A DNA stretch of 64,000 nucleotides from Candidatus Calescibacterium sp. (GTDB lineage Bacteria; Calescibacteriota; Calescibacteriia; Calescibacteriales; Calescibacteriaceae): the NCBI GenBank assembly GCA_032249135.1, contig JAVVGL010000005.1:40995-104994 (forward strand). Reading direction: 5' to 3'. Under the pieces are notes generated by a model, which saw only the letters and a program-made list of their open reading frames with translations, ran no database searches and was not told the origin of the DNA. Below, in pieces: positions 1,972 to 34,706 of the stretch. Every line of letters starts with the position of its first letter. The stretch's first letter is position 1. The translations under genes were made by a program, and so were the position numbers.

Positions 1972-2896
1972 TCATTTGAAATTTTTATTTTTTGAATTTG
2001 AGTTTTTGAGAAATTTGATAAAATCTTCCCAAGTTTCCGCTCTTATCACCTCTTTTTTTATCTTTTTCAAGTGGTTTACGTCGTTTATCTTTTCTAAAAG
2101 GTTTTTGATTAGTTTTGCTTTTTGACTGCCAAACTTTGCTTGGATAATGCCAAAAATTCCTTCTCTCAAACCTTTTATGAGCCCTTCTTTCAGACCTTCC
2201 TGTCTACCTTCTTTTAATCCTTCTTCTTTTCCCCACTTATAAAGAAAAGTTTTCCTTATATCAACTTGTATTGGCATAGGCTTTACCTTTATTTCAATGT
2301 CAAATAAGCCAGCTAAAAAACTTATGCTATCTATATATTTTATGATTTTTTCTTCGTTTTTCAAGATTTCTGCAATTCTTTTTTGAACCTTTCTTATTAT
2401 TTGGGGTTTATCTTTGAATTTCCCAGCCAAAATCCCCAAAATAACCTCTGCTGGTTTCCTACTCCTTATGAATACATCAGGGTCTATTTTCTTCATGTCT
2501 AAAACTTTGTATTTTAAGGTTAGATTTGGAGTTTTGTACTCTGATGGTGGGGGATTTCCTTTACCAACGAATAAAACTATTTGTGTAGGTTCTTTTTTGT
2601 ATTTTTCTACTATTGCGTAGTAATAGCGAAACATCCTTTTTGGTAAGTTTTTATCTTGTTGAGCTTGTATTTCAACCTGGATTATTTCATCATCGGCTTT
2701 AACTAAAATATCAGGGCGAAAAGTTTTTTACTAACCTTATTTCCGCAGATATAACTTTGACTTTTTTACCTATTTTTTTACCAATAGCTAAGTAGTAAAT
2801 CATTCCTATTGCTTCGGAGAAAATTTCTTTTAAAATCGCATCAAATCTTTTGAGCTCTTTTTTGCGTTTTTGGTATTGCTTTTTATGCTTTTTCAT
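1972..2896 (-). pseudogene. Rpn/YhgA-like PD-(D/E)xK nuclease (putative transposase family), frameshifted
   Basis: ORFs 2711..2896 and 1972..2634 plus the intervening sequence are colinear with intact paralog 32158..33108. T6 at 2724-2729 versus T5 at 32913-32917. Removing one base restores LVKTFRPDILVKADDEIIQVEIQAQQDK. Confidence 0.88.
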
Positions 2897-30926: not shown

Positions 30927-31856
30927 TCAGAAAATTGATTCAACAATTGCGATAGCCGATGCCAATTTCATGTGTGCTTGTGTAAAAATAACATCCTCAT
31001 ACATGCTAAAAACTTCTTCTGAAATTTCTTTTCCCTTGTGAGCAGGTAGGCAGTGCATAACAATCTTTGCATCAGAAATTTTTGACTTATCAACTCTATA
31101 AACTTCCATCTTTTTCTCTTTTTCCTCAGAATACTCTTGCCCCATAGAAAACCACACATCTGTGTATATTACATCTGCTTTTTGGACTGCTTTTTGAGGG
31201 TCGTACTCCACTGAATATCCTGAACCGAAATCTGGTTCGTATCCCGGAGGACAGCTGAAAACAAGCTGGAAATTTCCAAGAACTAAAAGAGCTTCTATCC
31301 ACGACCTTGCTACATTGTTTTTTGCGTCTCCGAGAAAAACTATTTTTCTTCCCTCATATGTTCCGAGTAAAAATTTTATTGTTGCAAGGTCAGAAATTAT
31401 CTGAGTTGGATGACTCAAATCACTTAAAGCATTAATTATTGGTATCTGCGAGTTTTCTGCAAAAATTTCTAATGTTTTATGGCTATTTACTCTGCATATT
31501 GCAAAATCAACATATCCTTCAACGACTTTTATAAAGTCTCTCAAATCTTCTCCTCTTGATATCTGGGTATCTTGCGGTGATGAATATATAACTTTTCCGC
31601 CGAGTTTATAAATTGCAGTTTCAAACGAAATTCTCGTTCTTGTAGAAGGTTTCTCAAAATATATTAACCCGACTTTATTTTTTAGTTTTTCACTATCTAT
31701 ATTTAGGTCGTTTTCTCTTTTCCGTGTTTTTTTTGTTCCTTTTTTTGTGTTGCTATATTGAGTTTTGATTGATTTAAATATTTCAACTGCTCTCTCTATT
31801 ATTTCTGCAAGTTCTTTTTTTGATAAATCCTCTAATGTAAGTAACCTCTTTATCAT
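30927..31856 (-). CDS. argF: Ornithine carbamoyltransferase
   Basis: FEKPSTRTR, INALSDLSHPTQ, DVIYTDVWFSMG, MHCLP. Start ATG 31856. Confidence 0.92.
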   Translation of the reverse strand: MIKRLLTLEDLSKKELAEIIERAVEIFKSIKTQYSNTKKGTKKTRKRENDLNIDSEKLKNKVGLIYFEKPSTRTRISFETAIYKLGGKVIYSSPQDTQISRGEDLRDFIKVVEGYVDFAICRVNSHKTLEIFAENSQIPIINALSDLSHPTQIISDLATIKFLLGTYEGRKIVFLGDAKNNVARSWIEALLVLGNFQLVFSCPPGYEPDFGSGYSVEYDPQKAVQKADVIYTDVWFSMGQEYSEEKEKKMEVYRVDKSKISDAKIVMHCLPAHKGKEISEEVFSMYEDVIFTQAHMKLASAIAIVESIF

Positions 31857-32012
31857 ATCAAAAGCATGAAATGAAAAGTAATTAGTGAGCAATTTTCAGA
31901 AAATCTTGCAAAAAAACAAAAAACTTGTAGATAAAATGATTAATAGTAAATTGAGGGTTTACAATTTATCAAGTGGAAGTTGAAACAACAAAAATGAAAA
32001 ACTTTGCAATGA

Positions 32013-32159
32013 TGCTTGCACAATCCTTAAAACTGCCAGTTTCAAACCTCTTATAACTCCTCTCTGTTCTCTCTCTTTCAGTCCCTCTTACCTTCCCCAT
32101 TTATAGAGGAAAGTTTTCCTTATATCAACTTGTATTGGGATAGGTTTCAAATTTATTTC
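32013..32159 (-). pseudogene. Silent/degenerate Rpn C-terminal cassette (RpnS-like)
   Basis: Frame overlapping the upstream stop reads EINLKPIPIQVDIRKTFLYKWGR*EGLKEREQRGVIRGLKLAVLRIVQA, homologous to the C-terminal module of both Rpn genes. ATG>ATC at 32139-32141 and TAA at 32088-32090. Confidence 0.85.
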
Positions 32160-33108
32160 ACTTATGGTTTCTGAATATTTTGATAAAATCGTCCCAGTTC
32201 TTTGCTTCTATTATTTTCCTTTTTATTTTTTTGAGGTAATTTACATCATCAACTTTTTCCAAGAGAGTTTTTACCTCTTTTACCTTTGACTTGCCAAACT
32301 TGATTTGAACATCTAATAAAATTGCTTCCTTTAAACCCTCCTGTTTCCCTTGTTTTATACCTTTTATAATTCCCTTCTGCTCCCCCTCTTTTAATCCCTC
32401 CTTTAATCCCTCCTCTTTTCCCCACTTATAAAGGAAAGTTTTTCTTATATCAACCTGTATTGGCATGGGTTTAACCTTTATTTCAATATCAAATAAACCT
32501 GCTAAAAAACTTATGCTATCTATATATTTTATGATTTTTTCTTCATTTTTCAGAATTTCTACAATTCTTTTTTTGACCTTTCTTATTATCTTGGGTTTAT
32601 CTTTGAATTTCCCAGCTAAAATCCCTACGATTACCTCACCAGGTTTTTTGCTCCTTATAAAAACATCAGGATCTATTTTCTTCATATCCAAAACCTCGTA
32701 TTTTAAATTTAGTTTCGGGGTTTTGTACTCTGATGGTGGAGGATTTCCTTTGCCAACAAACAAAACAATCTGTGTAGGTTCCTTTTTATATTTTTCTGTT
32801 ATTGCATAGTAATAACGGAACATCCTGTGTGGTAAAGTTTTATCTTGTTGAGCCTGTATTTCAACTTGGATTATCTTACCGTCAGCTTCAACTAAAATAT
32901 CAGGACGAAAAGTTTTTACCAAACTTATCTCTGCCAATATAACTCTTACTTTTTTACCTATTTTTTTACCAATGGCTAAATAATAAATTTTCCCTATTGC
33001 TTCTGAGAAAATTTCTTTCAAAATTGGGTCAAACCTTTTTAATTCTTTCCTATATTTGTTTCCTTTTCTTCTCTGCCATTGTTTTCTTATTTTCTTCTTT
33101 TTAAGCAC
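32158..33108 (-). CDS. Rpn/YhgA-like PD-(D/E)xK nuclease (putative transposase family), intact
   Basis: FDPILKEIF, RPDILV..IIQVEIQ..DKTLPHRMFRYY, C-terminal (E/K)EG repeats then KFG helical domain. Exact start uncertain. Confidence 0.85.
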   Translation of the reverse strand: MLKKKKIRKQWQRRKGNKYRKELKRFDPILKEIFSEAIGKIYYLAIGKKIGKKVRVILAEISLVKTFRPDILVEADGKIIQVEIQAQQDKTLPHRMFRYYYAITEKYKKEPTQIVLFVGKGNPPPSEYKTPKLNLKYEVLDMKKIDPDVFIRSKKPGEVIVGILAGKFKDKPKIIRKVKKRIVEILKNEEKIIKYIDSISFLAGLFDIEIKVKPMPIQVDIRKTFLYKWGKEEGLKEGLKEGEQKGIIKGIKQGKQEGLKEAILLDVQIKFGKSKVKEVKTLLEKVDDVNYLKKIKRKIIEAKNWDDFIKIFRNHK

Positions 33109-33245
33109 TTGATTTATTTATTTAGATTTTAAAATTTCCTGCATTTCAAAAATAGGGATGGAAATAGAAAATAGAATCTGATTGAGTTAAAATTTGGCTT
33201 TAATTTTACTTTGAATTTTGAAGAGATTTTATGAAATAATCGCTT

Positions 33246-34706
33246 TTAAAGTTGTATGTAAACATTTTTTACTTGAAGCATATCTTCTAAACCTTCCTTT
33301 CCGCCTTCTCTTCCTATGCCAGACATTTTATATCCACCCCATGGAGCATTGTGCGGAATTATACCAAAAGTGTTTATCCATACCGTTCCTGCTCTTATTT
33401 TCTTTGCAACTCTTATTGCTCGTGATATATCTTTTGTGAATATTGCGCTTGCAAGTCCATATTTTGTTGAGTTCGCAAGCTGAATAACTTCATCTTCACT
33501 CTCAAATGGGAAAATAGATACAACCGGACCGAAAATTTCCTCTTGAACAACTTCTGAATTATGAGGTAAATCTACAAAAACAGTTGGAGAAAAGAAATAT
33601 CCCTTTTTTTGATTTAATCTTGTGCCTCCAACGAGTATTTTCCCACCATCTTTTTTCCCTTTTTCAACAAATCTTTCAACTCTTTCAAGCTGTTTTTTGC
33701 TAATAAGTGGTCCTGATATTACGGCGGGGTCAAAAGGGTCTCCAACAGATATTCCTTTTGCCATATCTACATACTTTTTTACGAACTCATCATATATTGA
33801 TTTTTGAACGAATATGCGAGATGAAGCTGCGCACATCTGTCCAGCTAACGAAAACATTCCAACATTAGATAAAAATACTGCTGAATCAATGTTTGCATCC
33901 TCAAAAATTATGTTTGGTGATTTACCACCGAGTTCAAGGATATATTTTTTAATTCCACCTTCTTTTATTATTTTTTCTCCTATTTCTGTTCCACCGGTGA
34001 ATGATACTAACCAAACATCTTTATGTGAAATCAAAGCTCTTCCTGTTTCTGGTCCCCCGAAAATCACATTTACAACTCCTGGGGGAAAGACTTCTTTTGC
34101 TACTTTTGCAAATATGAAAGCAGGTAAGGGTGAATTTTCTGATGGTTTTATAACCACTGTATTTCCTGCTGCGAGGGCAGGAGCAACCTTAAAACCTAAG
34201 AACATTCCTGGAACATTCCAAGATGTTATTATTGCTGCAACTCCGAAAGGTTCTTTTAGTGTGAAATCAAAAAAGTTCTGACCTATTCCTACGACATCAG
34301 ATGAGATTTTGTCGCACCACTCTGCGTAGTATTCAAATCCTCTTCTCAAAGCTCCAAAAGATATTCTTGAGGATATAGAGCGAGGCAACCCAGAATCAAG
34401 CATTTCTGCTATCTGATACTCTTTTATATCTTTTATTTTTTCAGCAAATTGCTTCAAATATTTTGACCTTTCTCTGGGTGGAAGTTCTGACCAAGTTTCA
34501 AACGCTTTTTTTGCACTTTCAACAGCATCACCAACTTCTTTCTCTCCCGCTACACATACTTCCGCTATACCTTCTTCTATTGTTGGGTCTTCTGTGATAA
34601 AAGTTTTTTCAGTGAAAACAAATTCTCCATTTATGAGGAGAGGTATTTTTTGTCCTCCTGTTATTTGTTTTGCTTTTTCAATATGGTTTTTTACTATATC
34701 TTCCAT
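33246..34706 (-). CDS. Aldehyde dehydrogenase
   Basis: SWNVP, APALAAGNTVVIKPSE, SFTGGT, LELGGKSP, GQMC, EEIFGPV, PWGGYKMSGIGREGG. Confidence 0.95.
   Translation of the reverse strand: MEDIVKNHIEKAKQITGGQKIPLLINGEFVFTEKTFITEDPTIEEGIAEVCVAGEKEVGDAVESAKKAFETWSELPPRERSKYLKQFAEKIKDIKEYQIAEMLDSGLPRSISSRISFGALRRGFEYYAEWCDKISSDVVGIGQNFFDFTLKEPFGVAAIITSWNVPGMFLGFKVAPALAAGNTVVIKPSENSPLPAFIFAKVAKEVFPPGVVNVIFGGPETGRALISHKDVWLVSFTGGTEIGEKIIKEGGIKKYILELGGKSPNIIFEDANIDSAVFLSNVGMFSLAGQMCAASSRIFVQKSIYDEFVKKYVDMAKGISVGDPFDPAVISGPLISKKQLERVERFVEKGKKDGGKILVGGTRLNQKKGYFFSPTVFVDLPHNSEVVQEEIFGPVVSIFPFESEDEVIQLANSTKYGLASAIFTKDISRAIRVAKKIRAGTVWINTFGIIPHNAPWGGYKMSGIGREGGKEGLEDMLQVKNVYIQL

Follow-up and report, generated by a model that had tools for sequence, protein, structure and literature searches.

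In the part of Zhong et al. (2023, PMC10400941) that was available, to which all statements on that work refer here, rpn genes encode a toxic protein, RpnL, and an internal antitoxin, RpnS, whose specificity depends on how many four-amino-acid repeats there are. Some rpn genes are followed by a second RpnS copy (rpnCSs, rpnESs, which is ypaA, rpnFSs and rpnP1Ss). These rpnSs copies are produced as protein and group with their own upstream RpnS, and they can be lost by deletion or when the N-terminal domain is fused with the rpnSs region. Stand-alone RpnS-like small genes are named there as DUF4351 (PF14261). Here we analyzed a window of 64,000 nt from Candidatus Calescibacterium sp. (the whole stretch, contig JAVVGL010000005.1, positions 40,995 to 104,994), which carries an intact Rpn-like gene and, directly behind its stop codon, a short remnant related to the C-terminal part of that gene. 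We consider it probable that the remnant is the wreck of a tandem second RpnS-like module behind an intact Rpn-like gene, in a family whose tails have been re-assorted between paralogs.

The best reference point for such an arrangement is found in Escherichia coli K-12, where the ypaA copy begins at the stop codon of rpnE with the internal ribosome-binding site (RBS) and ATG. Over 179 alignment columns the copy and the rpnE module share 84% identity, and ypaA has an additional 12-nt repeat. The ypaA sequence (L124:7817-8002) is listed as a pseudogene in RefSeq, yet its tagged protein was detected by Zhong et al. (PMC10400941).

A decayed second module behind an intact Rpn-like gene

The features of the locus, all on the minus strand, are as follows.

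32158..33108, minus strand: intact Rpn-like (COG5464/TIGR01784-related) PD-(D/E)XK gene, an open reading frame (ORF) of 316 amino acids with a GTG start
32854..32901, minus strand: putative catalytic core D70 ... E83-I-Q85, from conservation in 20 aligned relatives and the RpnA alignment
32158..32466, minus strand: RpnS-like C-terminal module, residues 215-316 (102 residues), starting at the invariant Met215
32464-32466, minus strand: ATG codon of Met215, candidate internal start, invariant in the paralog alignment
32335..32418, minus strand: four-amino-acid repeat region (EEGLKEGLKEGEQKGIIKGIKQGKQEGL), inside the long helix
32158-32160, minus strand: TGA stop codon of the gene, overlapped by the remnant
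32014..32160, minus strand: decayed second C-terminal module (rpnSs-like remnant), 147 nt, nhmmer E-value 1.5e-27, profile positions 3-161 of 312
32139..32141, minus strand: ATC in place of the module start codon, from the alignment of 34 modules
32088..32090, minus strand: in-frame TAA inside the remnant, from translation

Read from the stop codon of the gene in a shifted frame of the minus strand, the remnant translates as SEINLKPIPIQVDIRKTFLYKWGR*EGLKEREQRGVIRGLKLAVLRIVQASLQSF... The first-pass annotation, made from the sequence alone, had described a second module overlapping the TGA, with ATC for ATG and an internal TAA, and all of this was confirmed by translation and by nhmmer with a DNA profile that represents the genome's C-terminal modules. 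The remnant runs from the junction through the conserved block referred to here as the anchor and through the repeat region to ~8 codons into the following helix, where relatedness ends. Among nine cassettes and solitary modules the start codon is ATG in six, and GTG, ATT and ATC in one each. The remnant is a pseudogene, in which the start has been lost (ATG to ATC), a TAA has been gained and the distal two thirds are gone.

Some details of the earlier description had to be revised. Homology does not start exactly at KP(M)PIQ, as had been stated, and begins 5-6 codons earlier, at the stop codon itself, where TGAAATAAA corresponds to the 'T GAA ATA AAG' of the internal ..EIK.. codons. Similarly, the tail of the cassette had been taken for a third variant, and the surviving start of the tail, ILRIVQA, was found not to be unique; it is nearest to the type present in the C38 and C4a cassettes and the C26 and C36 genes, a weak resemblance (19/26, vs 14/26 for its own neighbor). 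A 29-mer had been reported as shared with a distal paralog and not with the adjacent gene. This stood as far as the two genes are concerned, with exact matches at 2246-2274 and 32110-32138 and two mismatches at 32435-32463 (matches in 0/100 shuffles), but the 29-mer is not private to the pair, as contig C36 has a third exact copy.

Three metagenome contigs of the same locus (L096, L098 and L106) share the ATC, the TAA and the truncation. L098 reads identically at this locus and may be the source sample, while L096 and L106 have substitutions of their own, and the main gene is frameshifted in both. Because the three contigs carry identical lesions, the remnant is no assembly artefact, which disposes of an objection that had been raised in advance. 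Most of the stretch 31800-33350 is present in several hot-spring data sets. The remnant is therefore real, and it is carried in a decayed state within this population.

The Rpn-like gene and its C-terminal module

To place the gene, profile, alignment and structure comparisons were combined. TIGR01784 was matched by all 14 aligned paralogs at E-value <= 0.01 (best 1.8e-8), and Pfam PDDEXK_2 by one of the 14 (E-value 0.0046). An hhalign comparison of a 20-sequence profile with E. coli RpnA gave an E-value of 5.6e-4 across the catalytic core, pairing D70, E83-x-Q85 and R-M-x-x-Y with RpnA residues and setting the window core opposite the S-D-V ... E-H-Q stretch of RpnA. All 20 aligned relatives have E83 and Q85, and at least 90% of them have D70. 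The AlphaFold model of the window protein has a pLDDT (predicted local distance difference test) of 76 and an alpha/beta N domain. The best match of the N-domain model (residues 26-145) is NucS (Z 8.0, root-mean-square deviation 3.2, 101 aligned), and further PD-(D/E)XK fold matches are AF1548 (Z 7.4) and Can2/Card1 (Z 6.2-6.5). On these sequence and model comparisons, the gene at 32158-33108 appears to belong to the Rpn family, in a remote but consistent relationship, and its protein is predicted to have a PD-(D/E)XK fold with a D ... E-x-Q core. The Rpn-like assignment made at first pass was borne out in this remote form, by the TIGR01784 matches of the 14 paralogs and the RpnA alignment.

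Other searches gave little. Foldseek against the PDB gave no match at E-value <= 0.001 (all E-values >= 0.01), a profile search of the PDB by sequence gave no relevant match, and tblastn against plasmids gave no match. Pfam matches to Yae1_N and FliH were dropped, as both fall on the repeat stretch. Many of the 986 relatives found carry the JGI annotation 'predicted transposase YdaD'.

The C-terminal part of the window protein shows several of the hallmarks of RpnS. M215 is invariant across 14 paralogs; at the level of DNA, ATG stands at the module start in 25/25 first modules of the genome, and an AGGT, GAGG or AAGG resembling a Shine-Dalgarno (SD) sequence lies no more than 21 nt upstream of it in 18/25. 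In the AlphaFold model a low-confidence linker (residues 208-219) is followed by a 47-residue helix (225-271) and three short helices. Near-identical metagenome relatives of 316, 312 and 300 amino acids differ solely by whole four-amino-acid units in the repeat region, and the repeat number is also unequal between aligned paralogs. A homodimer model of residues 215-316 scored 0.66, against 0.00 for the best control, a mark that was reached by 20/30 solved homodimers and 1/23 monomers. The predicted dimer is parallel and in register along the long helix, with contacts agreeing to at least 97% between runs and a partner pLDDT of at least 85. A solved RpnAS dimer exists, so the prediction may reflect likeness to it. 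Taken as sequence and model evidence, the invariant Met, the repeat helix and the predicted dimer support an RpnS-like C-terminal part.

Third-position diversity is lowest in the ~35 codons before the anchor (0.16-0.27), with values of 0.33-0.36 in the anchor and 0.45-0.55 in the N-domain core. In 18 paralogs the minimum at synonymous sites lies at ~32485-32592 on the minus strand (residues ~173-208; 0.16-0.27 vs ~0.5), just upstream of the internal Met. Homogenisation could account for the low diversity near the anchor, as could an internal promoter or RBS, alone or together with it. A TAAAAT-containing promoter-like match lies at 32553-32526, in a scan that was not above chance; the site is possibly an internal promoter for a small protein. 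By analogy with E. coli Rpn we propose an internal start at Met215, from which a small protein would be made that may restrain the nuclease. The full-length protein would then be a toxic nuclease, and the gene with its small protein could act against phages.

Family members in the genome and its relatives

The assembly that holds the window (GCA_032249135.1) comprises 2.1 Mb in 51 contigs with 34% G+C. A census was performed in all six frames with tblastn and with hidden Markov models (HMMs) of 205 positions for the N domain and 102 for the C module. N domain and C module occur together at 24 loci, of which 18 read through in one open frame and 6 are frameshifted; beyond these there are 2 loci at contig ends, 2 solitary full C modules and 5 fragments. 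Each of the 6 other genomes of the GTDB family contains members, and none turned up with the same query in 24 more distant genomes. Among named relatives, Candidatus Calescibacterium nevadense and 'Bacterium HR19' are the nearest. The window gene is thus one of ~26 copies of a lineage-specific branch of Rpn (COG5464) in a hot-spring bacterium.

Second modules at other loci

The prediction that other orphan cassettes would exist held true. In the genome, nhmmer detected a module or a piece of one directly downstream in 11/25 loci, of the following kinds.

Full-length cassettes, 5: C4a and C29, open; C36, C38 and C49, frameshifted
Cassettes of ~140 nt, 2: the window and C9
Head-only cassettes, 2: C1a and C4b
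Tail-piece cassettes, 2: C2b and C3e, in which ~20 nt of head was also seen by eye after the stop

An intact pair of gene and cassette lies, for instance, on contig C4 at 100744-101947. By eye only, ~20 nt of head, or a vestige of head plus tail, was seen behind 5 further loci. Two classes of junction recur. In the first, tails ending in ...FRNHK stop at a TGA within the ..EIK. codons of the next module, with exceptions in C9 and C3b (TAA) and in C4a and C6 (no stop). In the second, some tails ending in ...NSKNKI stop at a TAG within the FLAG codons of the next module.

The same architecture as in the window was found in 10 other loci of the genome and in a named relative (L040). The first junction was followed further in 28 metagenome loci, which amount to ~12 locus types by their flanks and are not 28 independent cases: the second module is open and full-length in 12, full-length and frameshifted in 4, and shortened in 12. 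For open cassettes of the same locus, the ratio of nonsynonymous to synonymous polymorphism (pN/pS) is 0.12-0.25 in the C49 type and 0.31 in the C29 type. At these loci the second module behaves as a gene, because it is often open with a start codon and has a pN/pS of 0.12-0.31. Judged from these sequences, second modules are often intact and under purifying selection, and look like real small genes. For the window, the first-pass idea of a silent stored cassette becomes a weaker reading than that of a dead copy of a small gene that would work elsewhere in the family, since related modules are open in 12 of the 28 loci and the arrangement is that of the published rpnSs copies. Flank clustering of the metagenome loci gave no clean locus with a fused form of N domain and second module.

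Two metagenome contigs of the same locus by flanks, L109 and L119, have cassettes with unequal counts of four-amino-acid repeats. The repeat instability known for expressed Rpn tails therefore acts on the downstream copies too.

Exchange of tails among paralogs

The N-domain tree and the tree of the middle part of the module disagree strongly, as had been predicted for the two ends of the protein. Forcing six genes with the same tail type together on the N alignment changed the log-likelihood by -442 units (P-value = 6e-34, approximately unbiased (AU) test), and forcing one N clade together on the tail alignment cost 141 log-likelihood units (P-value = 2e-44, AU test); the groups in both tests were named after the trees had been seen, and the effect is very large. 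The same picture was obtained from pairs of loci. C29 and C2b are 95-100% identical in the last ~150 nt through the anchor and 55-72% identical after it, while C9 and C29 are 58-82% identical before the anchor and 90-98% after it. Identity also switches at other places, within the N domain (near column 470) and shortly ahead of the tail end. In a maximum chi-square scan of 276 locus pairs, 95 strong breakpoints were obtained, of which 47 fall in columns 400-439 and 26 in columns 640-759. In this distribution uneven conservation along the gene is confounded with recombination and the two are not separated, so that it speaks neither for nor against a cluster of breakpoints at the anchor.

The cassettes themselves show a comparable mixture. 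In all five full cassettes (5/5), the middle part ranks only 11th-29th of 33 when compared with the module in front of it. The anchor, by contrast, may match that of the neighbor closely (58/58 identical in C4a, 56/60 in C49), which points to local conversion between tandem anchors. Because anchors can be identical while tails differ, C-terminal modules must have been exchanged by recombination in or near the conserved block, and on the sequence comparisons such exchange among paralogs is well supported. The claim that the anchor is the recombination site for tail swaps was upheld in so far as exchange occurs in or near the block; it does not hold as an exclusive site, as boundaries also lie in the N domain and before the tail end.

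Alternative explanations

Several observations weigh against our reading of the locus and should be considered together. The TIGR01784 score of the window protein is 24.2 bits, vs a curated cutoff of 52.1, and in the Pfam scan of the window protein, its paralogs and the modules no family exceeded its cutoff; PF14261/DUF4351 was absent from the matches of the three modules scanned. The hhalign probability against RpnA is just 30%, and the fold comparisons gave middling scores (Z <= 8). The pN/pS of the cassettes could be lowered in part by recent conversion from expressed modules, and the AU groups were chosen after the fact, as stated above. The 'EINLK' class of junction, the window included, is without the SD-like AAGGT of the internal site; if translated, 'EINLK' cassettes would be coupled to the upstream stop 17 nt away. 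Finally, and unlike in E. coli, second modules fall apart from the module upstream of them, and simple local duplication alone is insufficient to explain them.

The silent-store idea can also be cast in a stronger form, in which the downstream copies are programmed cassettes and the anchor is a dedicated recombination site that switches the expressed C-terminus at appreciable frequency. The conflict between the N and C trees would fit this, as would cassettes that are heterologous in 5/5 cases with anchors homogenised to the neighbor in C4a and C49. Third-position diversity is likewise low from ~35 codons before the anchor through its end (0.16-0.36, vs 0.45-0.55 in the N-domain core), and fusion of the N domain with the rpnSs region is mentioned by Zhong et al. 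(PMC10400941). We nevertheless think programmed cassettes unlikely. There is at most one cassette per locus, and the 12 of 28 related cassettes that are open with a start codon, at a pN/pS of 0.12-0.31, are not silent. L096, L098 and L106 keep both arrangement and lesions, so that no frequent switching is seen, and mosaic boundaries also occur elsewhere in the gene. No recombinase or signal sequence is associated with the cassettes, and the toxic domain would sit at the N-terminus, which is not where polymorphic toxins have it. Dedicated switching, in contrast to tail exchange itself, is not well supported.

That the remnant is still functional, either as an extension reached by frameshifting or stop read-through or as a 3' untranslated region or regulatory RNA, is very improbable. 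The same sequence is kept in three contigs and overlaps the stop codon in another frame. However, the shifted frame runs into a TAA after 24 codons, neither a slippery motif nor a hairpin of terminator type was seen (0 terminator matches), and the conservation is explained by neutral retention over a short divergence, with the main gene frameshifted in 2/3 contigs. The remnant is a dead copy, without function to offer.

Chance resemblance or mis-assembly of paralogous reads, to which a 51-contig assembly with ~26 paralogs, several at contig ends, might seem prone, was refuted by the match to the module profile (E-value 1.5e-27), by the junction in 28 metagenome contigs, three of them of the window locus with the same lesions (one identical and perhaps the source), and by the architecture of the 10 other genome loci and L040.

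Origin of the remnant and its meaning

We return to the reading of the remnant as a wrecked second module. In this account, 32014-32160 would be the counterpart of the rpnSs small genes behind E. coli rpn genes, such as ypaA behind rpnE. The tandem copy may have arisen by unequal exchange at the short repeat GAAATAAA, which is common to the tail end and the module head. The tails would have been re-assorted between paralogs via homologous recombination or gene conversion at the conserved stretch around the anchor. Without exception among the full cassettes (5/5), the second module differs in sequence type from the one in front. Translation of the second modules is proposed by analogy, as is the internal start.

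The analysis extends the 'gene within a gene' picture of Rpn, and the little-noticed rpnSs copies, to a deep-branching uncultured thermophile. It also provides a data set for a question that is left open in the available part of Zhong et al. (PMC10400941), namely how Rpn tails diversify: ~26 paralogs of one genome and hundreds of hot-spring metagenome relatives offer a direct view of tail exchange, of change in repeat number, and of how second modules arise and decay. Heterologous downstream modules would gain importance if their small proteins worked in trans on other members of the family. The ~26 Rpn-like genes of Calescibacterium might form a combinatorial network with the heterologous RpnS-like genes downstream of them, in which each locus has a nuclease with one tail and a free small protein of another tail type that could restrain a different paralog, and recombination at the anchor keeps re-pairing nuclease domains with new specificity tails. 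We hold this network to be rather doubtful. If true, the result would be a toxin-antitoxin repertoire that shuffles itself, in effect a polymorphic system with the antitoxin as its variable part.

Distal paralog, solitary modules and surroundings of the locus

Two further features of the window, both on the minus strand, concern the family.

1972-2896, minus strand: distal paralog, split ORFs with HMM matches in two frames and a frameshifted N domain
33203..33211, minus strand: AAGTAAAAT motif, a possible -10 region ~95 nt upstream of the gene start, from flanks read by eye

The distal paralog is a pseudogene whose frame is split near 2714-2727 and whose tail type is unlike that of the gene at 32158-33108; nhmmer detected no cassette downstream of it. 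The AAGTAAAAT motif is common to most paralogs, roughly 30-100 nt upstream of their start codons (24 loci, by eye), and has no statistical support as a promoter in the promoter scan. The scan of the region for promoters and terminators gave nothing above chance, with 0 terminator matches. Similarity between paralogs seems to end just upstream of AAGTAAAAT, and no terminal inverted repeats around the paralogs were seen by eye.

Synteny with a genome of the same genus (G001) is broken at ~31942 and ~33245, on both sides, so that no comparison with an empty site is possible. The breaks in similarity to G001 bound a unit of ~1.3 kb that holds the putative promoter, gene and remnant. In G001 the flanking genes (ornithine carbamoyltransferase-like and aldehyde dehydrogenase) are split between contigs and have other neighbors, so that the window unit sits at a rearrangement or insertion point.

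The two solitary C modules of the census are open, full-length and have a start codon (G000 C11:42128-42469 and C44:1547-1834, both on the plus strand). They stand behind unrelated genes, a MutS-like gene and a hydrolase-like gene, and the C44 module starts at the ..AGLFD boundary seen in one class of cassette junctions. At G000 C1:15568-15975 there is a compound wreck with an N-domain start, two successive module heads and an inverted N-domain piece.

Comparison with known systems

In systems of the pilS and vls type, several silent cassettes without promoter or start feed a single expression site. The present cassettes differ from these, as they occur at most once per locus and many of them retain a start codon and an open frame. 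Behind cdiA and rhs genes lie orphan modules of C-terminal toxin and immunity sequences. The likeness to these is a displaced C-terminal module with a conserved junction just downstream of the gene, together with re-assorted tails. In contrast to them, the nuclease is N-terminal here, the variable tail would be regulatory or antitoxin-like, and there is one module per locus. No further ORF was found after the cassettes, so that the immunity gene of polymorphic toxins has no counterpart.

With the stand-alone RpnS-like genes the genome has in common the two solitary full modules with a start codon (C11 and C44); it differs in that the three modules scanned with Pfam gave no match to PF14261. 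The likeness to RpnL/RpnS (E. coli RpnA-E and RpnP2, Clostridioides difficile Rpn) is broader. It comprises a predicted PD-(D/E)XK N domain with a D...E-x-Q core, a variable C-terminal helical domain whose four-amino-acid repeat number varies among close relatives, a conserved internal Met after a purine-rich stretch, and a predicted dimer through the long helix. The differences are HMM scores under the family cutoffs and the host, an uncultured thermophile. On Rpn tails, searches of a paper library gave nothing beyond PMC10400941 and the commentary PMC10400984, and table sd01 of the former may list such downstream genes in other phyla.

The closest match is rpnSs. As in rpnE-ypaA, the window has a module copy directly behind the gene and abutting its stop codon. 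The window copy is shortened and without a start and thus lacks the own start and open frame of rpnSs, which are found here in 2/5 full cassettes and in 12/28 metagenome loci. The Calescibacterium family is also remote in sequence and spread over ~26 dispersed paralogs. The remnant is a decayed example of an arrangement already published (PMC10400941). The departure from E. coli, where in the part of that paper available the copy groups with its own RpnS, is that the downstream modules of Calescibacterium are always of another type than their neighbor (5/5 full cassettes).

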